A stretch of DNA of 64,000 nucleotides from an uncultured Bacilli bacterium (GCA_934153675.1 CAKPFG010000001.1:75426-139425), one strand, 5' to 3'. Positions 1-62,111 are shown, counted from the first letter of the stretch. Notes: a model not told the origin generated them from the sequence alone. Made by a program: numbers and translations.

Positions 1-1
1 A

Positions 2-856
2 AGTAATAATAAATTACCAGAAGATTATCAAACTTTAAAGTTAGATTATAATTTAAAAAGTATCAAATGTAATGTTACCATTAATTATGATGGTACGGTA
101 TATTTAACAGAATGTATTCTTGATAAAAAAGAAGTAAAAGATTCAAATAATGAAGATGGATATTATCACTATGGTAAGCTTCAAAAAAAAGCCTATAAAA
201 TAGGCGATGAAGTCACATATAACGGTATTAATTTTTATGTTATAGAAAATAGTGATGAGAATAGTGATTCTGTAACACTACTAAAGGAAGAACCATTAAC
301 AGTAGCTGAAGTAAATAAATATGGCGGAGTAGGAACAGAAAATAACCACGTTAATATGTATGCAGCAAGGGATACAGGTGCCTCAAATTATCAAAAAGCC
401 TATGATAATAATGGATACGGAGGAATGGCATACTATTCAAGTTCAACATGTGGATATAATGGTTCTAAATGGATATCTGATGGATGTACGACAGATTATG
501 CAAAGAGTGAAGTAAAATATGTAGTTGATGCATGGGCCTTAGATAAACTAAAGGCAAGTGACCTAAAAGAGGATAAAACCGGCTATAGTGTAAGATTAAT
601 AACGTTGGATGACTTAGTAGATAATTTAGGATATGGCGATAATGGATACGGTGGAATAGAAATGTCACAAAATGGAGAAACCCCAAGTTGGTTATATAAT
701 GGTAAATATTATTATTATTGGACGATGAGTCGATATAGCACTTCCACTTCTCGCGTGTGGTATGTGAGCGACGGTGTCGGCGTGTACAACTACGATGTGT
801 ATTTCAACAGAGAAGCCGTGCGCCCTGTTATAACCATAAAAAAATCTGCTATCTAA
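2..856 (+). CDS. Prepilin-like/DUF1566-like surface protein, 5'-truncated by the window edge; paralog of 1159..2199; carries putative DGR variable region at its 3' end
   Basis: Frame 2 is open from base 2 through the stop at 854-856; the ORF-track start at 356 is internal. It shares near-identical blocks with the next gene (YHYGK..YKIGDE.TYNGINFYVIENSDE, DYNGYGGMAYYSSSTCGYNGS, VRPVITIKKSAI). Motifs 'GYSVRLITLDDL' and 'YYWTMS' resemble DUF1566 / Lcl C-terminal domain. Confidence 0.6.
   Translation, partial: SNNKLPEDYQTLKLDYNLKSIKCNVTINYDGTVYLTECILDKKEVKDSNNEDGYYHYGKLQKKAYKIGDEVTYNGINFYVIENSDENSDSVTLLKEEPLTVAEVNKYGGVGTENNHVNMYAARDTGASNYQKAYDNNGYGGMAYYSSSTCGYNGSKWISDGCTTDYAKSEVKYVVDAWALDKLKASDLKEDKTGYSVRLITLDDLVDNLGYGDNGYGGIEMSQNGETPSWLYNGKYYYYWTMSRYSTSTSRVWYVSDGVGVYNYDVYFNREAVRPVITIKKSAI
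731..829 (+). other. Putative DGR variable region VR1 (core; may extend upstream to ~690)
   Basis: Locally GC-rich stretch of NNC/NNT codons (cgc tat agc gac ggt gtc ggc tac aac ...) in an otherwise AT-rich gene. Differences from the paralogous segment at 2074..2172 are confined almost entirely to codon positions 1-2. The 3' flank is identical in both copies. Confidence 0.5.
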
Positions 857-1158
857 AAAGAAGGATAACAGAAATTAAAAAAGTAGAAAAGCTAAAAATA
901 TATTGTAAATGATACTTAATAATTTATAATAATTTGTTCACAAATTATTGTGATAGATAGCTTTGCTGTGATGAGCGATTTGCTATTTATAATATAGGGA
1001 GTAGTCTTACTAATATTTAAAAGAACTTTCAATAATTTATAAGTTATTGAAAGTTTTATTTATACAAAGGTAGTAATTATTACTACGATTTTTTATTTTG
1101 AAGTGGTAGCTTTTTTTAATTAATTATGCTATTATGAATACATAAGGTAGGAGGATAT

Positions 1159-2199
1159 ATGAAAAATAAAAAAGCATTTACATTAATAGAATTAATAGCC
1201 GTATTAGTAATACTAGCTATATTAGCACTAATAGTAACCCCAATTGTATTAAATATCGTAAAACACGCTAAGGAATCAGCTAATAAAAGAAGTGTTGATG
1301 CATACGGAAAAAGTATAGAACTTGCTGTAGCTAATTACTTACTAGATAAAGGAGAATTTCCAACAAACATAAGTGATTTAGAAATTGAATATTCAGGTAA
1401 AGAGGTTGTATGTAATATTTCCCTATTAAATGAAGATTCAAGTGTATACTTATCAGAATGCAAAGTAGGAAGTAGTGATGTAAAGGATAAAAATACTAGC
1501 GATGGATGGTATCACTATGGTAAGAGTACTAAAGTAACTTATAAAGCCTATAAAATAGGCGATGAAATCACATATAATGGTATTAATTTTTATGTTATAG
1601 AAAATAGTGATGAGACTAGTGATTCTGTAACCCTATTAAAAGCAGAACCATTAACAGTAGCTGAAGTAAATAAATATGGTGGAGTAGGAACAGAAAATAA
1701 CCATGTGAATAAAAATACCTCTGAATCAAAGGGAACAGCCGATGATTATAATGGATACGGAGGAATGGCATATTATTCAAGTTCAACATGTGGATATAAT
1801 GGTTCTACTAATTGGATATCTGATGGATGTACGACAGATTATGCAAAAAGTGAAGTAAAATATGTAGTAGATGCCTGGGTATTAGATAAACTAAAGATAA
1901 GTGACTTAAAAGAGGATAAAACCGGCTATAGTGCAAGATTATTAAGTCATGATGATTTAATTATAAATTTAGGATATATAGATAGTCTAGACACGGGTAA
2001 AACAAATCCATCAAGCAATGGAGAAACCCCAAGTTGGGTATATAATAGTAACTATTGGTATTGGACCATGAGTCAATATGGAGATTCCGCTTCTTGCGTG
2101 TGGCATGTGCTCGGCAATGGCCACGTGGGCTTCTACGGTGTGCATTACTACGAAGGTACCGTGCGTCCTGTTATAACCATAAAAAAATCTGCTATCTAA
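1159..2199 (+). CDS. Prepilin-type N-terminal cleavage/methylation domain protein with C-terminal DUF1566-like domain; putative DGR target
   Basis: N-terminus MKNKKAFTLIELIAVLVILAILALI matches the type IV pilin/pseudopilin class III signal (cleavage after G/A-F-T-L-I-E). RBS aggagg precedes the ATG. The C-terminus parallels gene 1 and ends in the same VRPVITIKKSAI. Confidence 0.75.
   Translation: MKNKKAFTLIELIAVLVILAILALIVTPIVLNIVKHAKESANKRSVDAYGKSIELAVANYLLDKGEFPTNISDLEIEYSGKEVVCNISLLNEDSSVYLSECKVGSSDVKDKNTSDGWYHYGKSTKVTYKAYKIGDEITYNGINFYVIENSDETSDSVTLLKAEPLTVAEVNKYGGVGTENNHVNKNTSESKGTADDYNGYGGMAYYSSSTCGYNGSTNWISDGCTTDYAKSEVKYVVDAWVLDKLKISDLKEDKTGYSARLLSHDDLIINLGYIDSLDTGKTNPSSNGETPSWVYNSNYWYWTMSQYGDSASCVWHVLGNGHVGFYGVHYYEGTVRPVITIKKSAI
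2074..2172 (+). other. Putative DGR variable region VR2 (core)
   Basis: Codon-for-codon alignment with 731..829: tgc/cgc, cat/tat, ctc/agc, ggc/gac, aat/ggt, ggc/gtc, cac/ggc, ggc/tac, ttc/aac, ggt/gat, cat/tat, tac/ttc, tac/aac, acc/gcc. Third positions are conserved and the segment is GC-rich. Confidence 0.5.
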
Positions 2200-2676
2200 A
2201 AAGAAGAATAACAAAAATTAAATAAGTAGAAAAGCTAACTGGTTAGTGGACAGTCTTAGATAGAGTATGTAATATAAAGGAGAAACAAGGGTAAAAATCC
2301 GGCCAGTGAGCTTGGATATGCCCTTGTTTAAATTTTAGAAAATAAAAAAAGCATACTATAAAAATTATTCAATAAAAATTGAATTTAAATTTATTATTAT
2401 GACAATATAAAAATTATGAATCATAGAGAACAAAATATAATTGTATATTTCTTAACGAATTAAAAACTAGATGAAAAAGGGTAAGCCCAGTATTAAAAAG
2501 ATAAAGAATACGAATTCTTTTTCTATTAGAGGAAGTGCGAGTAGAAATTTTTACATTTTTATAGCATTTCATTTTTTTTGCAAAATCAGATCTTAGTAAT
2601 GTAAGATAAAGAGAAACAGTACATAGAATAGAGTACATAGATTCAAAATATTTTAAAGATGCATTAACAGTTTTTT

Positions 2677-3278
2677 CTAGATAAAATCTATTAGATTTCT
2701 AAATTTTAAAAAGGCATTCAATACCACCAAAACGATACTGTAATCTTTTATAGAACGGTTAAGATTTTTAGCGTAAACAGGAACCCAAGGCTCATTAGTG
2801 TCAATAGAATCACTGATTATAATATTATTAGTATATTTAGAGTCTGTAATTTGAATTTTTTCGTATTTGATAGTACGATATTTGTATCTAGGCAAGTTTT
2901 GTAGAATTTTCCAAACTTTGTGGTCTTCATGTTTCATTAAGCCAGTAGAATTAAACCAACGATTAGCTAAGAAAATCAGTTCAAAATCGTCAGGAAAAAG
3001 ATTTGAAACATAAGAAATACCTTCTTTTATAAATTTTTCTTTAAAAGCGTCATGGCAATCTTTTTCTCGAAACAACGAAACCAAATAGGTATACCTTGTT
3101 TACCAATACGTATAGAAATCATGAAAACAGTATAATTATCATGAGAAAACATATAATCAAAAATAATATGAATTCTTTTATCGTTATGTTTCTTCTTGTA
3201 TGTTGAAATTACATACTTAATAACGAAGTTGAAACTCTTAAAGTTATAGCAAAAGAATTTATATTCAATAAAATTCAT
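2677..3278 (-). pseudogene. Frameshifted hypothetical gene: two overlapping minus-strand ORFs (3278..3027 and 3084..2677) read the same DNA in different frames
   Basis: The ORF ending FRCFEKKIAMTLLKKNL* and the ORF starting MVSLFREKDCHDAFKEKF overlap at 3027..3084, consistent with a single ~200-aa gene disrupted by a frameshift. No recognisable domain and no RT motifs. Confidence 0.3.
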
Positions 3279-3655
3279 ATCATCTATTTTTTCTTTGCTT
3301 TTTCATTTTTTCTTTAATAATTCCATTTACCTAATTTAGATTATTTTTGTTAATTATTAAATTGCTATAACTACCAGATATATATGTTTCAATTTTTGCT
3401 ATACTGGTTATTTTGTAATATGCCGCGTCAATTGATTTTTGAATGAGTAAATCTTTATTTATAAATGTTTCTTATAATATAACTCACTACGAGATAAGTA
3501 TAACATTTTTCTTTTAAATCACCAATTATTAATCATATTATTAATTATATTTATATTATCTTTCATTGATAAATTTGTCTGTTTTTGTTATAATGTCATT
3601 AGTTGATAGTATTAAGATATGCTTTTAGAAATTAATTGAAGGAAAGGACTTAAAG

Positions 3656-4429
3656 ATGGTAAATTATAATGATATTTTGAGGGAATTGTTTAATTATTAT
3701 CAAAGTATTTATCTCTATATCGAAAATGAGTATAGAATGATAATAGGTATTGATGATTTAATCATAAATTTCAAAAATGATTTTTCCATTTCTTCAGTTG
3801 AACAAGATGGTTTTATCAAGTATGATTATAATAATAAAAAATTTTTATTAAACTATAATAGTGGTATAAATAAATATAATAGTTTAACAAGAGAAAATTT
3901 TAAATTAAGTGCAAATGATAAATATAATAATAATATTTTTGATTATTATTCTAAAGATGATATATCATCAATAATACAGTTAAATAATATAAAATTTATT
4001 GATTATGTTAAAAGTGAATTTTTGAAAGAATATTTTACTAAAATCATTCATGTTATAAGTAAGGATAAAATGGAATATAGTGATGATTTTGGCAATTATT
4101 CTAAAAATAATGGTTACTATTTTAATCAAGTAATTTGTGAAATAGAATCTAGAATGTTTACAAAAAAGTATTATTTATTGTCTGTTCCTAGAACTTTGGG
4201 TAATAAAAAAATCATAAATATTGCTAGAAATCTTTTAAATAATAAAATAACAAGAGAGTTAATTTTAACTAAAAATGATAATTTATTGTTTCAATCATTA
4301 AAAAATAGTATGAAAGATTATATTACACAATATGAATATAATTGTTTTGAACAAGAATTTAAAATAAACTCAGGAACGTTGAATTATGAAATATATAATA
4401 GTATATTTAATAAAACATCCAAAGAATAA
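3656..4429 (+). CDS. Hypothetical protein (257 aa), N/K/Y-rich, no recognisable domain
   Basis: Long ORF with an RBS-like aaggaaaggac upstream; no motif recognised. Confidence 0.45.
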   Translation: MVNYNDILRELFNYYQSIYLYIENEYRMIIGIDDLIINFKNDFSISSVEQDGFIKYDYNNKKFLLNYNSGINKYNSLTRENFKLSANDKYNNNIFDYYSKDDISSIIQLNNIKFIDYVKSEFLKEYFTKIIHVISKDKMEYSDDFGNYSKNNGYYFNQVICEIESRMFTKKYYLLSVPRTLGNKKIINIARNLLNNKITRELILTKNDNLLFQSLKNSMKDYITQYEYNCFEQEFKINSGTLNYEIYNSIFNKTSKE

Positions 4430-4592
4430 AAAAAATTTAGTAACATGATTTTAGAAATGAAAAAAGGTCATAATTTTAGAAAAAATATTTTGTTTGAACC
4501 GATTAATTCATTTGGTTTTGCAAATAATATTTTATTATTATATTATTTGTGACATTGATTTTTAGAATTATAATTATAGGAGGTTAAGTACA

Positions 4593-7500
4593 ATGACTGC
4601 AGATGAAGTAAGTGTTTTGTTAAAAAAATTAATTCAAGATTTAAAAAATATTATAGATGATGTAAAGCAGTCTGATAATTATTGTAAATTAGAATCTAAA
4701 ATTGAACAATTTGATAATTTACCTGATACGGATGAAAATGAAAAACTGAAAGATCAATTATATGATAGGCAAGATTTATTAATAGAAAATGCAGTTAATA
4801 GTTTTCTTTCAAAAATACCTAAAAATCAGATAAAGGATATATTATTAACTTTAACACCAGAATTTATAGAAAGTAATCATTTAACTTTTGCAAATAATTT
4901 TGTTGACAGCGAATTTAAAATGATAATACAATACTTTATAGAGCATTTGGAAGATTTGAATCATCAATTTTATAACTCTTTACTTACTAATGATAGATTT
5001 ATTACATCTATTGAGCCTTCTGTTTCTTTAATTAATTCATTAATTAGTCATACAAATGATGAACAATCGATTTTATATTTTTTACAAAAGTATAGTAATA
5101 ATTTTGGTAAAGCAGATGTTAAAATAGATGATTTTAATATAAATTGTAATACAGAATTTGGAATTATTATTTTTAATATAATTAATTCTTTTAATTATTC
5201 TGAACAATTTAAACTTAGATTATTAAATGATAGTAATTTTCTTCCTTATTTAAGTGAATTTTCAATAAAGCAAATAATTATGCAATCTAATTTACCTCAA
5301 AAAAAGAGATATGATTTTTTATTAACTGAAAGTGTATTTGAGAGATTATCAAATTTTAATTTTTCTGAAGTATTAAGTTCATTATGTAATAATATTAACG
5401 ATTTAATTTTACTTTTAGATAATAAAAAGCTATATGACAAAATAAATTTTGGTTATCTTTTAGGTAATGTCAGAATTAACGAAGAAAGTTTGTCTATAAT
5501 TCTAAACGATGATAGGATTATGAAAAAAATGGATTGGCTAAATATAGAAACATTTTTAAAAGTAAATCCTTATATAGATTTTGAATTAAAAAAGAAAATA
5601 TTATTTAATGAAAAAATATATGGTAGGTTAAATGATTTAGCTGTTGCAAATATATTAACTTCTAAATATTTGACGAAAGAACAAAGAAAAGAATTGTTGG
5701 ATAATCCTAATATTGCAGTTTTTTTAAAAAGTGTAGATGTCATAAGTACATTATTAGAAGAGAACACTTTATCATTAGAAGAGAAAATTTCAATTATTAA
5801 AAACAAGAGATTTGTACAATATATTGATAATAGAATACTAGAAAAATTTATGATGAATCCAAATTTAGAATTATCTATAGCTACTGATATTATTTCAGAT
5901 AAACGATTATTCTATCTATTGATTGATGAATATAATGAAGAATATAATCCAAAGAATACTAATAATAAGGGCCCATTTAAATATGATAAATATGAATATA
6001 TGCAAATGTTGCTGAAAAATAACCCTTATTTAGCACGAACTTTTTCTTTTGAATTGTTAAAAGATGATATTTTAGATTTAGGTTATGACTTTATTGAGAA
6101 AATAAGCAGATACCCACAAACGGCACGTAAAATAGCATCGATGTATGGACATTTTAGTTCTCCTTTAATTTTTGAACAAATGAGTAGAGTAATTATGAAT
6201 TCTGTATATGCTTCAGAAATTGATGTTAATTTATTTATTAATAAATTAATTGAAATGAATAATGATAATTCTCATTATAACAAAGATGTAAAAAAGAGGA
6301 AGAAATTATCAACAATAAGACATAATGCACATCTTGATTGGAATCAAATGACACCTGAGAGATGGAAGATACTTACTGAAGTTGGATTGAGAGATATTAG
6401 TTCTTATTATAATGGAATTAGTATGACTATGTTTGGCGTGATTAAAGATGATGTAGATATATCTTTGAATATTTTGCCGGATATAAATAATATGTATGAT
6501 ATAGATAATTTTTATCAACGTAGATTATTATTATGTGATGAGGTGTTTCAAAAATGTTTAAATAACAATGACTTAAATGGTGCAATTAATGTATATTTAA
6601 ACAAATATTTTAGTATTAATATCCAAGAAGCAGAGCAAATAGTAAGAATGTATGGAACATCCATTGATCAATTTAGTAGTAATAAAAATTATGATATGCA
6701 AGTTAAATATGTAAAAAGCATAAAAAAAATTTTGGAAATAACAAAAATTAGGACTATTAAACAGTGTTATATGGATAGTAATATTCAACCGTTATCATTT
6801 GATGAAAATATATATATTGACCAATCTATTAGAAAAATATTTAGTAAGAATATATCCGATAGTACATTTAAAATTGATAGTAATATGCAGCCGACTTTTA
6901 TAGAAATACCATTTAATATTAATGGGGCAGGCGTTATACAAAAAATACCTGTCTATGAAGTAGGATTGGATTTTAAAATGTTAATTCATAGTACGGATGC
7001 CTATGGATCAATGGAATTAATAAATAATAATTATTTTGATTCTTGGAATAAAAGTGGTAGAAAAAGTAATCATGGAATATGTTGTTCATTTATATCAAAT
7101 GATAATATGGGGATGGCAGCAGTTAATGATGTTTTATTTGGTTTTTCAAGTTGGGATGAAAAAGCTATGATGAAAATTGCTCCATATGATATATATTCTT
7201 ATAATGATGAATATGAGATACAAGAAGGTAGACCATTAACTTTTATGTCTGCCCAAGATATTATTAATAATACACGTCATACACATAATGAGATGTCTTT
7301 AGAAAGATTTGAATTAAGAGATAATTTAAGGACACCTGAATGTCAGTACATTCAACCAAGTTATGTTATTATATATAGCGATATGAGTGATGTGATAAAA
7401 GCAAAGGCCGTTAAATGTTCAAATGAAATGAATATTCCAATTGTATATTTAGATAAAGAAAAAATTGTTTCTAATGAGGTTGCTAAAATTGACAAAAAGA

Positions 7501-8651
7501 TTGCTGAATTATATTCAATAGATACTAATATTGAAAGAAAATTGCAGTTAGTAGAGCAAATACTAGTATCACATGAAAACAATAGAAGTGGGTTAAGAAT
7601 GACAAATAGTGATTGGGTAGAACAGTATTTTCCAACTTTAAAAATAAAAAAGGTATTTACTGATTTAATAATTTATATGCAACAGGAATATAAAAGAACA
7701 CAAGATATTAGTCTTTATTCTCGATATAGTTTAATGTTAATGGATATTTTAGATAAAGAAAATGAGAAATTTAATGTAGCAATGGAGAATGTTCAAAGAA
7801 AAAATTATATTGATATACCAATAGATGATTATAAAAAATTACTGATGCGATTTATAAATACTAATTTTTGTCATACTAATATTCCAAAATTAGAAACAAT
7901 TGTTCAAAGTTCAAAAAATGATGATTTAAATACTCCATTATCTGAAACACTGAAAACAATTGATATTGATGAAATACGTAAGATAACAACAGATATGATT
8001 CAGAAGAAATTGTATGTTAATGATGGCAAAAATCATAATATAGGTCATATTGAAAGAGTAATATTATTATCAAAATTAATAGGAAATAATGAATTGAAAA
8101 CTGAAGATGAAAAAATAGATAAACATGCAGTTGGGTTATTAATTGAATGTGCTAAGTATCACGATTGTGGTCGATTGAATGATAATATTGATAAAAATCA
8201 CGGTAAAAAAAGTGCTGAAAAAATGGATGAGTTTTTAGCAAAAGATGGATATTCTGATGAAGACAGAAAAATTATGCAAATTGTAGTAGAATATCATGAA
8301 ATGAAAGATGATGATTTTAGATTTGAAAAATTGTGTGAGAAGTACAATTTGAATAAAAATAAAATAGAATATGTCAAAAAAATTGCCAATTGTTTAAAGG
8401 ATGCAGATGCATTAGATAGAACTAGATTTAAAAATCCAAACGCTAAATTAGATAGAGATTTATTAAGATTGTCGTCATCAAAAGATTTTGTATTAATAGC
8501 GGAAATGTTAAATCGTGAATATCAAATTATTGATAGAAAGCAGTTTGAACATTTATGTAATCAAATAGCAAAAGAACAAAGTATATTAAATAATAATAAT
8601 TTAGTAAATAATGATAAAATTGACCAAATGAAACATGAAAGGAAAATATAA
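4593..8651 (+). CDS. Very large (1352 aa) protein with C-terminal HD-domain phosphohydrolase
   Basis: RBS aggagg 7 nt upstream. C-terminal motifs HNIGHIERV ... AKYHDCGR ... VVEYHE ... DALDRT match the HD superfamily (H..HD..H..D). The N-terminal ~1100 aa are helical repeats of unknown function. A cysteine/histidine-containing segment (NHGICCSF..THNE) sits mid-protein. Confidence 0.7.
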   Translation: MTADEVSVLLKKLIQDLKNIIDDVKQSDNYCKLESKIEQFDNLPDTDENEKLKDQLYDRQDLLIENAVNSFLSKIPKNQIKDILLTLTPEFIESNHLTFANNFVDSEFKMIIQYFIEHLEDLNHQFYNSLLTNDRFITSIEPSVSLINSLISHTNDEQSILYFLQKYSNNFGKADVKIDDFNINCNTEFGIIIFNIINSFNYSEQFKLRLLNDSNFLPYLSEFSIKQIIMQSNLPQKKRYDFLLTESVFERLSNFNFSEVLSSLCNNINDLILLLDNKKLYDKINFGYLLGNVRINEESLSIILNDDRIMKKMDWLNIETFLKVNPYIDFELKKKILFNEKIYGRLNDLAVANILTSKYLTKEQRKELLDNPNIAVFLKSVDVISTLLEENTLSLEEKISIIKNKRFVQYIDNRILEKFMMNPNLELSIATDIISDKRLFYLLIDEYNEEYNPKNTNNKGPFKYDKYEYMQMLLKNNPYLARTFSFELLKDDILDLGYDFIEKISRYPQTARKIASMYGHFSSPLIFEQMSRVIMNSVYASEIDVNLFINKLIEMNNDNSHYNKDVKKRKKLSTIRHNAHLDWNQMTPERWKILTEVGLRDISSYYNGISMTMFGVIKDDVDISLNILPDINNMYDIDNFYQRRLLLCDEVFQKCLNNNDLNGAINVYLNKYFSINIQEAEQIVRMYGTSIDQFSSNKNYDMQVKYVKSIKKILEITKIRTIKQCYMDSNIQPLSFDENIYIDQSIRKIFSKNISDSTFKIDSNMQPTFIEIPFNINGAGVIQKIPVYEVGLDFKMLIHSTDAYGSMELINNNYFDSWNKSGRKSNHGICCSFISNDNMGMAAVNDVLFGFSSWDEKAMMKIAPYDIYSYNDEYEIQEGRPLTFMSAQDIINNTRHTHNEMSLERFELRDNLRTPECQYIQPSYVIIYSDMSDVIKAKAVKCSNEMNIPIVYLDKEKIVSNEVAKIDKKIAELYSIDTNIERKLQLVEQILVSHENNRSGLRMTNSDWVEQYFPTLKIKKVFTDLIIYMQQEYKRTQDISLYSRYSLMLMDILDKENEKFNVAMENVQRKNYIDIPIDDYKKLLMRFINTNFCHTNIPKLETIVQSSKNDDLNTPLSETLKTIDIDEIRKITTDMIQKKLYVNDGKNHNIGHIERVILLSKLIGNNELKTEDEKIDKHAVGLLIECAKYHDCGRLNDNIDKNHGKKSAEKMDEFLAKDGYSDEDRKIMQIVVEYHEMKDDDFRFEKLCEKYNLNKNKIEYVKKIANCLKDADALDRTRFKNPNAKLDRDLLRLSSSKDFVLIAEMLNREYQIIDRKQFEHLCNQIAKEQSILNNNNLVNNDKIDQMKHERKI

Positions 8652-14085: not shown

Positions 14086-16215
14086 ATGAAAAAAATATAT
14101 GAATTAGATTTTAGGGGAAGAAAATTAGTTGTAGAAATTGGTGAACTTGCCAAACAAGCTACTGGTTCTTGTTTAGTAAGATACGGTGATACTGTCGTTC
14201 TTTCTACTGTTGTAGTAAGTAAAAATGCTAATGTTTTATCTGATTTCTTTCCTCTAATGGTTTTATATCAAGAAAAATTATATTCTGTTGGCAAAATACC
14301 AGGTGGATTTATAAAAAGAGAAGGACGTCCAACGGAGGCAGCAACTTTAGCAGCTCGTATGATAGATAGGCCAATGAGACCAATGTTTCCTGAAAATTTT
14401 AGAAATGAGGTACAGGTTGTAAATACTATTTTGAGTGTTGATCCTGATAATTCTCCAGAAATGGCTGCTATGTTTGCTTCTTCATTAGCAACATCAATTA
14501 GTAAAATACCTTTTGATGGTCCTATTTCTGGTGTTAAAGTAGGTAGAATAAATGAAAAATTTATCATTAATCCAACTGTAGATGAAACTAATAATTCTGA
14601 TATAGATTTAACTGTTGCTGGAACAATAGATGCAATTAATATGGTAGAAGCAGGTGCAAAAGAAGTAACGGAAAGTGAAATGCTTGATGCATTAGAGTTT
14701 GGCTTTGAAGCTATAAAGGAATTGAATCAGTTTCAGAAAAAGATTATTGATGATATTGGTGTAGAAAAAATGGAATATGAAGTATTAGATATTCCAGAAT
14801 ATTTAAAAATAGATATTAGTAATATGTGTAGAGATAAATTAGATTCTGCACTTAGAATTAAAGGAAAACTTGAAAAATATCAAGCAATTGATAATGTAAA
14901 AGAAGAAGTAATTTCATACTATGAAAATAATAATAAAGATTTAGAAGAAAAAGAATTAACTATTTTACTTACTAAAGTAAAATTAGTATTGGAAAAGATA
15001 GAATATGATTTATTTAGAAGTATTGTAGTAAAAGAAAAATTGCGTGCTGATGGAAGAAATATGGATGAAATTAGACCATTATCTGCAAGTGTTGATTTGC
15101 TTCCAAGGACACATGGATCTGCTTTATTTACACGAGGTGAAACTCAGAGTTTATCTGTAACAACGCTCGGTGCATTAGGAGAGCATCAAATTTTGGATGG
15201 CCTTGATTTAGAAACAGAAAAAAGATTTATGTTGCACTATAATTTTCCTCAATTTTCAGTAGGAGAAACAGGCCGATATGGAGCCCCTGGAAGAAGAGAA
15301 ATAGGGCATGGTGCTCTTGGCGAACGAGCTTTAGCACAAGTTATACCAAGCGAGGAAGAATTTCCTTATACTATCCGTGTTGTATCTGAAATATTAGAGT
15401 CAAATGGATCATCGTCTCAAGCTAGCATTTGTGCAGGTTGCATGAGCCTTATGTCGGCTGGTGTTCCAATCAAAAGTCCAGTTGCTGGAATTGCAATGGG
15501 ATTAATTACTTATGGTGATGATTATACTATTTTAACAGATATTCAAGGAATGGAAGATCATTTAGGCGATATGGATTTTAAAGTTGCAGGTACGAAGGAT
15601 GGAATTTGTGCTTTACAAATGGATATAAAAATAAAAGGAATTACTAAAGAAATATTACAAGAAGCATTATCAAAGGCAAAAATAGCTAGAATGAAGGTAT
15701 TAAAGGTAATGCTTGATACAATTAAAGAACCTAGAAAAGAAGTAAGTAAATATGCTCCAAAAACATTATCATTTATGGTTGATCCAGAAAAAATAAAAGA
15801 TATTATAGGTAAGGGTGGAGAAATGATTACAAAAATTATCCAAGATGCAAGTGGCGTTGTTAGTGTAAATGACGTAAATGCTGTTAAAGTTGATCTTGAA
15901 GATGATGGCAAAGTAATTATATATCATAATAATAAGGAAATAATTGAAAAAACAGCTAAAATGATAAAAGATGTTATTCGTGTTCCAGAAGAAGGAAAAA
16001 TATATAAAGGAAAAGTTGTTAAAATTATTGACTCTGGTTGCTTTGTTGAAATATGGCCTGGATGTGATGGAATGGTACATATTTCAGAACTTGATACCAA
16101 AAGAGTTGATAAGGTTATAGATATTGCTAATGTTGGCGATGATATGATTGTAAAATGTTTGGGATATGACAAAAAGGGAAGATTGAACTTATCTAGAAAA
16201 GCCGCTTTAAAGTAA
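14086..16215 (+). CDS. pnp: Polyribonucleotide nucleotidyltransferase (PNPase)
   Basis: 709 aa; two RNase PH domains, a KH domain and an S1 domain (GKVVKIIDSGCFVEI..DGMVHISEL). Confidence 0.95.
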   Translation: MKKIYELDFRGRKLVVEIGELAKQATGSCLVRYGDTVVLSTVVVSKNANVLSDFFPLMVLYQEKLYSVGKIPGGFIKREGRPTEAATLAARMIDRPMRPMFPENFRNEVQVVNTILSVDPDNSPEMAAMFASSLATSISKIPFDGPISGVKVGRINEKFIINPTVDETNNSDIDLTVAGTIDAINMVEAGAKEVTESEMLDALEFGFEAIKELNQFQKKIIDDIGVEKMEYEVLDIPEYLKIDISNMCRDKLDSALRIKGKLEKYQAIDNVKEEVISYYENNNKDLEEKELTILLTKVKLVLEKIEYDLFRSIVVKEKLRADGRNMDEIRPLSASVDLLPRTHGSALFTRGETQSLSVTTLGALGEHQILDGLDLETEKRFMLHYNFPQFSVGETGRYGAPGRREIGHGALGERALAQVIPSEEEFPYTIRVVSEILESNGSSSQASICAGCMSLMSAGVPIKSPVAGIAMGLITYGDDYTILTDIQGMEDHLGDMDFKVAGTKDGICALQMDIKIKGITKEILQEALSKAKIARMKVLKVMLDTIKEPRKEVSKYAPKTLSFMVDPEKIKDIIGKGGEMITKIIQDASGVVSVNDVNAVKVDLEDDGKVIIYHNNKEIIEKTAKMIKDVIRVPEEGKIYKGKVVKIIDSGCFVEIWPGCDGMVHISELDTKRVDKVIDIANVGDDMIVKCLGYDKKGRLNLSRKAALK

Positions 16216-16574
16216 AAGTTAAATAAAAAGTTAGAATATAATGATGTGAACCCCAATTAATAGACAGCATAAAAAACTAGTATATTAAAAAAAATTAGAG
16301 AAATTATTTTTCTCTTTTTCTTTCGCGTACATTGAGGAAAATCTAGTGTTTTTTTAGTATTTTAAATTTTTCTTAGGTAAAATTAGATTCATTTATTCAT
16401 CTAATTTTTAATCCTATAATTTTTGGATGATGCTTTTTTAATCCAAGTAAATATGTACTAGATGGAATATTATATTATTTTGATACATATCTAATAGACA
16501 TTCCTCATTTAATCTTACTTATAATTTCAAGTTTTAAATTATCAGAATATTTATTAAATTTTTATTCTTTTGCT

Positions 16575-16606
16575 ACTACAAAAAATACACTTTCAAAAAG
16601 TGTATT
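16575..16606 (-). terminator. Intrinsic terminator for the HIT gene (minus strand)
   Basis: aatacacttt / aaagtgtatt 10-bp stem with a 3-nt loop and a flanking A/T run. Confidence 0.5.
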
Positions 16607-16656
16607 ATAATATTTTTATTGAACTATTTTTTATACCGGCTACTTTTTTAATAATA

Positions 16657-17016
16657 TTAATTATTTAATATTGTATAAATTTCATTTACTGGTTTTATAA
16701 TATTATTTTCATAGTGTGGTTTTAAATGTAAATGAAAATGTTTTATTTCTTGAATAGTTCCATTATTTTGTACTAATGTTAAACCATCGCAATTTAATTT
16801 ATCATATAATAACTTTTTAATTTTTTTAGCAATCATTAATATATGATTTAAAGTATCAATAGGAATATCATCGATATCTAAATAATGCTTTTTAGGTATT
16901 ATTAATGTATGACCATTACTATCTGGATGAATATCTAAAAAAGCATAAACAATTTCGTCTTCATATAGTTTATAACTGTTAATTTCTTTATTAATAATTT
17001 TGCAAAATAAGCAATC
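16657..17016 (-). CDS. HIT-family (histidine triad) nucleotide hydrolase
   Basis: C-terminal HFHLHLKPH triad; start at MDCLFCKI (17016) preferred from RBS gggag, ORF open to 17034. Confidence 0.8.
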   Translation of the reverse strand, partial: DCLFCKIINKEINSYKLYEDEIVYAFLDIHPDSNGHTLIIPKKHYLDIDDIPIDTLNHILMIAKKIKKLLYDKLNCDGLTLVQNNGTIQEIKHFHLHLKPHYENNIIKPVNEIYTILNN

Positions 17017-60563: not shown

Positions 60564-60592
60564 TGACAAAATAGAAAATAAATGATAATATT
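60564..60592 (+). promoter_or_regulatory. Sigma-A-like promoter upstream of the ORF-free GC-enriched segment (ttgaca - 17 nt - taatat with upstream tg)
   Basis: TTGACA at 60564-60569; aaatgaTAATAT at 60581-60592. Confidence 0.35.
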
Positions 60593-60599
60593 TAGTTTG

Positions 60600-61202
60600 T
60601 AATGGCACATTATTCTAGTCAATTACATTTATTATGAAGACGGGATTAAAAAACCGTACATTAGCACATCTGTGAAGCTTTTGGTGCTTGCTTCTTACGC
60701 CCAGTTTGGGGTGGGTGCTGGAAGAATTAATGTTGGGCGCTCGTAATGGCATACGATTCCGACCCACCATTTATTTGAGACCTTTCTTTGTGTTTGGCCT
60801 ATACGTGTATACTGATGGACCGGATACGAACAAGGATTAAACCTATTTGTGGCGAAAGTTATGAATAGTGTAGCTTGCCTTGAGTGATATATGGGGATTA
60901 ACGTATAGTTGATATTATCTAGCTAATAATTGTAACTGTTATGAAACATTTATTGCAAAAGAGACTAATAATAAATGATTGTAGAGGAAAACTCCTAGAG
61001 TGACATTAATATAGGATTACAGTACGTACTAAGTGGTAATCAAGTCATATATCTGGCAACACTATATCTTATTCTTTAAAGGGGAACCACTTATTGGTAA
61101 CGATAAGTAGAATATGGGGAAATCCAACTTGACCTAAGACGTAAAGTTAACTTTATTAATTGCCATATAGAAGTATAAAAAGGTCTAAGACCTTTTTATT
61201 TT
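60600..61202 (+). ncRNA. Candidate large structured ncRNA (~600 nt), OLE-like
   Basis: ~40% GC versus ~25% for flanking DNA. Stops in all six frames (only a 63-aa antisense ORF nearby). Multiple local and long-range complementarities (ggtgggt 60706-12 with acccacc 60763-69; cttat-tggtaacga-taag hairpin). Bounded by the promoter above and an intrinsic terminator at 61177-61202. Followed by a small 4-TM protein gene. Confidence 0.4.
61177..61202 (+). terminator. Intrinsic terminator at the 3' end of the candidate ncRNA
   Basis: aaaaaggtc-taa-gaccttttt hairpin followed by tattttat. Confidence 0.6.
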
Positions 61203-61586
61203 ATAAGAAGAAGGTTGAAAATAAAAATATCAGTTAAGGCATTAGCAATATTGACATTAGAAACTAACTAATCGCTGCAACTAATTAAATCTTCAGTAAA
61301 AGTATTAAATGATTTAGTTTGATAATCAGTTATATCTCTATCATTGGTTTTAAATATTAACAACAATAGTTTTTTTGTGAACATCAATACTTGCACAATC
61401 TTGGTAAACAATTTTAAGCATACAAAAATACTAAAGCAAAAGATAAAAATATTCACCACTCACCTCTACGTGCTTTTGTAGTATGCCTAATAACAGTTTA
61501 CTATTATATCAAAAAAATAATTATTTTAATTACAATGTGTGCCTTTCAGAGGACTGAAAGGACGAAGAAAGGAATGTTTGTTAAAA

Positions 61587-62111
61587 ATGAAAAATAATTA
61601 TAAATGGATTTTAAAAATATCATTAATTGCCCTTTTTTTGTCTATCTTTTTTACTTTTTTGGCAAATACAGTTATTTCTAATGTATCAATTATCTTAGGA
61701 ATAGTTATAACTGTATTTATAATAATTATTGGAATAATATTTGATATGATTGGTGTAGCCATTGCTTCTGTAAGCCCGTCACCATTTCATTCTATGGCAT
61801 CAAAGAAAAAAAGCGGAGCAAAAATGGCTTTGAAATTGATAAAAAACAAGGATAAAGTATCATCTTTTTGTTGTGATGTAGTAGGTGATATTTGTGGAAT
61901 TATTTCAGGTTCTACTGGTACAGTAATAATTGCAAGTATTGTGTCAAATTTAAAATGTAATGAACTTCTTATATCACTTATTGTAATAAGTTTAATTTCT
62001 AGTTTAACAATTGCAGGTAAAGCTTGTGAAAAAAAATTTGCTATGAACAAAAGTGTTAAAATTATATATACATTTGCAAAAATATTAAGTATATTTGAAA
62101 AGAAAAATTAA
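61587..62111 (+). CDS. Small four-TM membrane protein, candidate OapA-like partner of the upstream ncRNA
   Basis: ~175 aa (ORF open from 61539). Four hydrophobic helices with a basic loop SKKKSGAKMALKLIKNKDK and a CCDVVGDICG motif. Confidence 0.45.
   Translation: MKNNYKWILKISLIALFLSIFFTFLANTVISNVSIILGIVITVFIIIIGIIFDMIGVAIASVSPSPFHSMASKKKSGAKMALKLIKNKDKVSSFCCDVVGDICGIISGSTGTVIIASIVSNLKCNELLISLIVISLISSLTIAGKACEKKFAMNKSVKIIYTFAKILSIFEKKN

Follow-up and report, generated by a model that had tools for sequence, protein, structure and literature searches.

We describe here two neighboring genes in a 64,000-nucleotide stretch of DNA from an uncultured, low-GC Bacilli bacterium of the gut (GCA_934153675.1 CAKPFG010000001.1:75426-139425; hereafter the window, with positions counted from its first letter), and we suggest that both encode modular type IV pilins whose C-termini are rewritten by a diversity-generating retroelement (DGR). 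To our knowledge, DGRs are the only system by which prokaryotes hypermutate proteins in a targeted manner. They are richest in the gut, and what the DGRs of cellular Bacillota diversify is poorly understood. In the reading that we consider probable, gene 1 (2-856) and gene 2 (1159-2199) are members of a multigene family dispersed over the genome, are diversified by a DGR acting in trans, and are displayed on a filament. This reading is carried by a prepilin motif, a predicted fold, codon variability of the AAY type and, in relatives, DGR cassettes arranged next to their targets together with PilC/PilD genes. The DGR, the DUF6273 target, and the modular type IV pilin were each known already; what is new is their combination, which the literature mentions only in passing.

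Gene 2 lies on the plus strand and is an open reading frame (ORF) for a modular type IV pilin-like protein of 346 amino acids, with a ribosome-binding site (RBS), AGGAGG, 4 nt upstream of its ATG and MKNKKAFTLIELIAVLVILAILALI as its N-terminus. A sequence-only reading of the window had taken this N-terminus for a canonical prepilin peptidase cleavage and methylation motif. The motif is genuine and the N-terminus is exactly as claimed, with scores above the cut-offs of both Pfam N_methyl (PF07963; 32.0 bits, cut-off 21.2) and TIGR02532 (28.2 bits, cut-off 16.3); in a six-frame regular-expression search of the whole window, it occurs once, at this very place. The protein starts MKNKKA/FTLIELIAVL (the slash marks the predicted cut site). 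Alignment to the N-termini of MshA, GspG, and PilE1 delimits MKNKKA as the leader peptide (1159-1176, +), and prepilin peptidase would be expected to cut after Ala-1. All hallmarks of a class III signal peptide are present, namely a basic leader, a small residue at -1, Phe or Met at +1, Glu at +5, and a run of ~20 hydrophobic residues, although the word "canonical" was slightly generous given the Ala at -1. Among 101 aligned homologs, residue -1 is Ala in 57 and Gly in 44, while F+1 and E+5 are unchanged throughout (101/101). A profile of these homologs matches the pilin N-termini of MshA, geopilin, GspG, and Streptococcus sanguinis PilE1 in PDB, and the matches of the PDB sequence search fall on pilin alpha-1. 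Gene 2 remains below the cut-offs of the equivalog models for ComGC (NF040999; 40.3 versus 75 bits) and GspG (TIGR01710; 37.7 versus 88.85 bits), with only residues 4-76 aligning in either case.

The full-length protein was modeled with AlphaFold2 from 101 sequences, with a mean predicted local distance difference test score (pLDDT) of 87.5. The model has a long alpha-1 helix followed by a beta head, as in pilins, with the head reduced to a minimum. The alpha-1 region (residues 7-64; 1177-1350, +), in which a hydrophobic alpha-1N is followed by an amphipathic alpha-1C, was delimited from the PDB matches to pilin alpha-1 and from the modeled helix, which spans 56 residues (9-64). The head is a two-strand hairpin (residues 83-103; 1405-1467, +; strands 83-90 and 96-103) bracketed by Cys85 and Cys101, both invariant, and a disulfide between these two cysteines would clamp it. 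The C-terminal part (residues 125-346; 1531-2196, +) was assigned from the domain model and its Foldseek matches to a DUF6273/C-type-lectin-like domain; modeled alone, it reaches a pLDDT of 93.8 and a predicted template modeling score (pTM) of 0.91. Its hypervariable residues, 307-332, sit on a modeled two-strand hairpin (313-317/323-327). DUF6273 is a published C-type-lectin-like target domain of DGRs, in which the variable region (VR) lies at the C-terminus and forms a beta-hairpin (PMC11792537, PMC10743442). Foldseek comparison with BFVD, a set of viral structure predictions, gave DUF6273 proteins of gut phages as top matches (E 6e-7 to 1e-3), and the matches also include DUF1566 proteins and receptor-binding proteins. 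In the corresponding search of PDB folds, the sole significant match was 9qa6 (E 1.2e-4), an IgA peptidase from Thomasclavelia ramosa with an N-terminal domain annotated as DUF6273 (PMC12402451). The sequence-only reading had proposed a structure prediction to check for a lectin fold on a pilin-like helix; the model shows a pilin alpha-1 with a small head, and the variable region coincides with the hairpin at the C-terminus of its DUF6273/C-type-lectin-like domain.

The lectin-like domain of gene 2 is also found in up to 7 tandem copies in proteins of ~1000 amino acids (P0286, P0312, P0359, and others), which match only the C-terminal domain of the query, and elsewhere directly after short N-termini. 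Because it occurs in both of these arrangements, and in proteins that are not pilins, we regard it as a mobile module that serves in several contexts of display.

The C-terminus of gene 2, which had merely been presumed to be hypervariable, proves to be so. The VR-like stretch of gene 2 covers residues ~305-336 (2071-2166, +) and was delimited by GC content, entropy, codon pattern, and position on the hairpin; that of gene 1 comprises 32 codons (728-823, +) and was delimited by GC content, codon pattern, and co-linearity with five other VRs. Both lie in GC-rich patches, with 53% GC at 2073-2173 and 51% at 730-830 versus 24.4% for the window. Across 38 homologs of at least 77% identity, residues 1-180 have an entropy of less than 0.2 bits per column, and the peak, of up to 3.3 bits, falls in residues 307-332. 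We compared the DNA of six VRs from the same or closely related strains (genes 1 and 2, L082, the second gene of L001, L166, and L020) and found them co-linear without gaps over 32 codons. Variable sites number 21, 22, and 7 at codon positions 1, 2, and 3, respectively, and sites with at least three nucleotides 12, 11, and 1. This pattern is the reverse of neutral divergence and is that which adenine mutagenesis of AAY codons produces. Since the variation concentrates at the first and second positions of the inferred AAY codons, we read it as the signature of a DGR. NNY-encodable residues make up 97.3% of the hypervariable columns versus 82.7% of the other variable columns. The idea that one template repeat (TR) could diversify both genes also held up: their two VRs and the four further ones appear, from their alignment, to fit a single TR.

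Variation of another kind is seen in two loops at residues 185-222 and 264-284 (~1711-1824 and 1948-2010), which vary in mosaic blocks at a normal GC content, with K, E, Q, M, and W among their residues; this suggests recombination between paralogs rather than DGR action. A second VR in residues 185-222 was considered and rejected on account of the normal GC content and the many residues that are not NNY-encodable. In L001, a paralog of the P0049 class (2-730) possesses the pilin module and the lectin-like domain with an AT-rich C-terminus (33% GC) that is not VR-like, and is a natural non-diversified control within the family.

Of gene 1 (2-856, +), a paralog of ~425 amino acids whose N-terminus lies outside the window, 284 codons and the stop are visible at the 3' end. 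Its translation aligns to residues 148-425 of P0002 (425 amino acids) with an overall identity of 79%, complete (100%) in the first 59 of the visible residues, and shows the pilin-head unit in a second, duplicated copy ahead of the lectin-like domain that gene 2 also has. P0002 itself carries a duplicated helix-hairpin head unit and the same prepilin N-terminus as gene 2 (N_methyl 31.6 bits). A gene 1 lacking the prepilin motif would have spoken against the pilin assignment; its orthologs, on the evidence of P0002, carry it. The two genes also have their flanks in common. The end of gene 1 and its 3' flank (824-895, +), recognized as a direct repeat (D1) and by alignment, recur at the end of gene 2 (2167-2238, +) and in dispersed paralogs such as L082. 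Judging by this conservation, the region may serve in target recognition, in the manner of an initiation of mutagenic homing (IMH) element. The homology between the flanks of the two genes ends at 2238. Upstream of gene 2, a promoter-like region of ~75 nt containing the AGGAGG RBS (1085-1158, +) is near-identical before the paralogs in L082, L117, and L166; a promoter scan found sites no more numerous than in shuffled sequence.

The identity of these proteins as DGR targets is borne out in relatives. In four related lineages, family members that bear the prepilin motif directly adjoin bona fide DGR cassettes with adenine-specific mismatches. These cassettes consist of MSL, Avd, reverse transcriptase (RT), and TR, where MSL (MutS-like, with a MutS_I domain) is a known DGR accessory gene (architecture D, PMC5758913). 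The first of them, L091, came from a metagenome scan; next to its MSL gene, bAvd-like gene, RT (RVT_1 69 bits), and TR stands, in divergent orientation, a family member of 313 amino acids that is 49% identical to gene 2 (N_methyl 27.5 bits). Of the 15 mismatches between TR and VR, which extend over 78 nt, 14 fall at TR adenines. The core of this TR, TCT AAC GTG TGG AAT GTG AAT AAC AAT GGC AA (TCTAACGTGTGGAATGTGAATAACAATGGCAA...), closely resembles the TR inferred from the VRs of the window, which should read approximately TCT AAC GTG TGG AAT GTG AAC AAC AAT GGC AAC GTG AAC AAC AAC AAT GTG AAT AAC AAC AAA GGT TCC GTG CGC CC. With the L091 RT as a query, we recovered further cassettes, all in the order MSL-Avd-RT-TR followed by an N_methyl-bearing target. 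The target has 315 amino acids in L164/L165; 380 amino acids, with Gly at -1, in L167-L169 (21 of 22 mismatches at TR adenines); and 347 amino acids in L170, where it is the most like gene 2 (12 of 12). Partial cassettes stand next to family members in L094 and L101. RT, Avd, and MSL genes adjoin family members in L091, L094, L164, L165, L167-L169, and L170.

In one metagenome-assembled genome (MAG), SRR12081298_bin.74, three types of VR fit three types of TR: L170 fits its own, L014 the L091 type, and L015 the L164 type. Since each VR type fits a different TR type, this implies several sets of DGR and target, or targets in trans, per genome in this clade.

The MSL-type cassettes share a conserved structured RNA of ~150 nt directly 3' of the TR, located at 2638-2788 in L170, 11428-11590 in L164, 2518-2675 in L163, 11388-11545 in L167, 7722-7565 (-) in L091, and 2068-2235 in L174. 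Of the 44 pairs predicted by RNAalifold, 23 show compensatory changes, and the RNA aligns to Rfam RT-14 (RF02921) over the full length of the model but below its threshold (30.7 versus 48.1 bits). Within the DGR RNA, it probably acts as the spacer or in priming. No counterpart of it is present in the window, as judged from an Rfam search of 1-5000 and an alignment of 2239-2340; we considered the latter segment as a remnant of the element and rejected it, the alignment being unconvincing and 1-5000 having no Rfam match.

The family to which genes 1 and 2 belong is large, with 2139 proteins at E<=1e-3 among clusters of 90% identity. At 50% identity, 303 clusters reach E<=1e-30, a number that includes proteins sharing only the C-terminal lectin-like domain. 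Paralogs are many and dispersed. Four occur on the 233-kb contig to which P0001, a match of 100% identity, belongs; single copies are found in the mraY-rny (L082) and ftsX-proS (L166) intervals, and a tandem pair precedes spoVS (L001). The dispersed copies share ~75 nt of upstream region including the RBS and ~75 nt of 3' flank.

We propose the following mechanism. The carrier would be made up of a class III signal peptide, the alpha-1 helix, and a minimal disulfide-clamped head, present once in gene 2 and twice in gene 1. Onto this pilin carrier a DUF6273/C-type-lectin-fold domain would have been grafted, with its last ~32 variable codons serving as the VR. Together with Avd and MSL, an RT would copy an adenine-rich TR located elsewhere in the genome, misincorporating at adenines, and the cDNA would replace the VR in each of several dispersed paralogs that share VR framework and 3' flank. 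We thereby infer for this genome a cognate TR and RT that act in trans on both genes. After cleavage by prepilin peptidase, insertion through the pilin module would place the proteins, in all likelihood at the tip, in a type IV filament or a pseudopilus of the Com kind, so as to expose a changeable ligand-binding face through the Gram-positive wall, presumably for use in adhesion. More tentatively, and as a possibility rather than an expectation, we suggest a general arrangement for low-GC Bacilli of the gut and rumen: at least five copies of the modular type IV pilin per genome, each with its own conserved promoter, would have their lectin-like tips rewritten in trans by one or a few MSL-type cassettes. 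Such genomes would possess a combinatorial and constantly renewed set of adhesins at filament tips, and DGRs would for the first time be connected with type IV filaments in monoderms.

Several observations weigh against our reading, and they concern the lectin-like domain, the filament, and the DGR. As for the domain, the PDB fold matches that follow 9qa6 are weak (C-type lectins, EgtB, the C-terminal domain of Legionella Lcl, and the Treponema DGR protein TvpA). Matches to Pfam DUF6273 (PF19789) remain below the gathering cut-off of 23.5 bits, with 19.1 bits for gene 2 and 21.0 for gene 1, and cover only the C-terminal ~45 positions of the profile. The likeness of the modeled structures supports a distant relationship to DUF6273.

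As for the filament, the class III-like N-terminus might act only as a signal-anchor that holds the lectin at the membrane or wall, with no type IV filament involved. We regard this as unlikely, even though it survives best among the alternatives. No pilus machinery was found in the window or in another ~70 kb from the same or closely related strains (~130 kb in total). Neither the window nor ~0.8 Mb of related loci yielded a PilB/ComGA-type ATPase, and inspection of ~30 family loci revealed neither an assembly ATPase nor a pilus operon in their vicinity. The paralogs stand alone among housekeeping genes, outside pilus operons, and residue -1 in this species and its close relatives is Ala as opposed to the canonical Gly. 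Furthermore, two members (L013 258-1487 and L022 6894-8189) join the N-terminal prepilin motif to a C-terminal hydrophobic, transmembrane segment and a basic tail, and could be anchored at both ends. However, the absolute conservation of F+1 and E+5 fits selection for a processing and assembly motif, and modular pilins elsewhere are incorporated through their pilin module (PMC8179133). Related genomes, moreover, possess part of the machinery. The sequence-only reading had called for a prepilin peptidase and a pilus assembly ATPase elsewhere in the genome. No A24 peptidase is encoded in the window, but in two related genomes such a peptidase stands beside a PilC-like gene, whereas no assembly ATPase was seen. 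In both L003 (1633-3775) and L013 (14611-16771), the gene next after a T2SSF gene for a PilC-like platform protein (162 and 157 bits, respectively) encodes an A24 prepilin peptidase (matching A24_N_bact and Peptidase_A24; 3017-3775 and 16013-16771), each pair being isolated, without an adjacent ATPase. The L003 pair lies 560 nt downstream from a family member, and L013 and the L170 cassette come from one MAG. Small ordinary pilin genes are also present in related genomes (L016, L005).

Some candidates for pilus ATPases were rejected. Walker-A regular-expression matches corresponded to a VirD4/TraG-like coupling protein in L022 and to ABC transporters in L117, and L013 8212-11190, considered as PilB/PilT, encodes NAGPA and VanY proteins.

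As for the DGR, it may not be active in this genome, and the VRs could be relics: the cassette would have been lost or never present, leaving frozen VRs in which nothing but ordinary mutation and recombination brings about change. No TR is present in the window, since a direct-repeat search and an adenine-tolerant scan of both strands found only the two VRs, and no RT, Avd, or MSL was detected in it with a YxDD regular expression or by tblastn with the cassette proteins of relatives. The cognate cassette was not found in the collections searched either. None of the six recovered TRs templates the VRs of the window, the patterns of the inferred TR gave zero matches in two scans of viral contigs and one of metagenome contigs, and the RT homologs, as another route to the cassette of this species, led to TRs of other types (L163, L164, L167, L170, L174). 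In the bin.74 MAG, the VR-bearing paralog L014 has no cassette within 10 kb. Just downstream from gene 2, within the segment 2239-3650, two overlapping minus-strand ORFs of 135 and 83 amino acids (2677-3278), with no significant Pfam match, look from their arrangement like a frameshifted remnant of a gene. Against this, the 38 close homologs are near-invariant outside the VR and maximally diverse inside it, which suggests recent or continuing diversification; nor is the AAY pattern blurred by third-position changes. DGR cassettes in these data occur mostly on contigs of 1.5-10 kb, and because of this tendency to fall on short contigs, failure to recover one is weak evidence of its absence. We consider relic targets to be quite improbable.

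Hypervariable C-termini can also be made without any DGR. The C-terminus of the Neisseria type IV pilin, which has many genomic copies, is varied by RecA-dependent gene conversion from silent copies (pilE/pilS); this system is like the present one in its hypervariable pilin C-terminus and unlike it in lacking adenine mutagenesis based on reverse transcription. Gene conversion among paralogs as the source of the variability described here would agree with a multigene family having common flanks, with the identity of the first ~120 residues among paralogs of the same contig, and with the mosaic loops, but it is highly improbable, given that the VR varies site by site at positions 1 and 2 of AAY-type codons with third positions fixed, that 97% of VR residues are NNY-encodable versus 83% in the mosaic loops, that every paralog is a complete gene, start and RBS included, and that TR/VR pairs with adenine-specific mismatches occur in relatives.

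DGR-diversified modular type IV pilins, as we propose for genes 1 and 2, have partial counterparts among described systems. Among these are the DGRs of Bacteroides type V pilus tip adhesins (bioRxiv 10.1101/2024.11.15.621889), which are likewise borne by the chromosome or by an integrative and conjugative element (ICE) in gut commensals and act on a C-type-lectin-fold module placed on a pilus subunit. Those are type V pilins of Bacteroidota, whereas the carrier described here, in low-GC Bacilli, joins a type IV pilin module to a class III signal peptide. The same study reports that most variable proteins of cellular Bacillota have domains like those of phage receptor-binding proteins, and type IV pilins go unmentioned. 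S. sanguinis PilB and PilC, with a von Willebrand factor A (vWA) and a concanavalin A (ConA)-like lectin module, respectively, are also monoderm proteins in which a type IV pilin module bears a bulky ligand-binding module through a short linker, with proposed exposure at the tip (PMC8179133). They are not diversified by a DGR and are encoded in the pil locus, in contrast to the singly dispersed genes described here, which join a DUF6273/C-type-lectin-like domain containing a VR to the pilin module. DUF6273 targets of phage DGRs, in Faecalibacterium prophages (PMC11792537) and among tentaclins and tgt2 (PMC10743442), share the domain, have their VR at the C-terminal beta-hairpin, and are the best structural matches; however, they are tail or receptor-binding proteins, and the present targets possess a prepilin N-terminus and are encoded in a cellular chromosome. 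The gene order of the cassettes in relatives, from the MutS_I protein through Avd and RT to the TR, is that of MSL-type cassettes (architecture D; Wu et al. 2018, PMC5758913), and the Legionella DGR also has an MSL gene (PMC5758913). The survey by Wu et al. (2018) describes no targets with a prepilin N-terminus, and the word "pilin" is absent from it. A large-scale DGR survey probably includes the same architecture in one line of a list, without analysis of architecture, family, cassette, or machinery; apart from this passing mention, we found no combination of DGRs with prepilin motifs in the literature searched.

A large family of Bacillota DGR targets, carried on a type IV pilin module, is herewith identified. 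Were filaments to be built from these proteins, the bacteria would have an evolvable lectin on a retractable or wall-spanning fiber, with a direct bearing on interactions with host, glycans, and phages; if our reading is true, the system would be the type IV-filament counterpart of the type V pilus DGRs of Bacteroides. The union of pilin and DUF6273 is, in addition, a compact natural scaffold for display and directed evolution.

The remaining part of the window contains further features. Downstream from gene 2, proteins of 257 and 1352 amino acids (3656-4429 and 4593-8651, +) have no Pfam or PADLOC match; by eye, an HD-like H...HD motif can be recognized at the C-terminus of the larger one. 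Toward the other end, a full-length Ornate Large Extremophilic (OLE) RNA (RF01071) is located at 60586-61182 (+; 361 bits, E 2e-102), and the ORF that follows it (61539-62111, +), for a multi-pass membrane protein of 190 amino acids, stands at the place expected of the OLE-associated protein.

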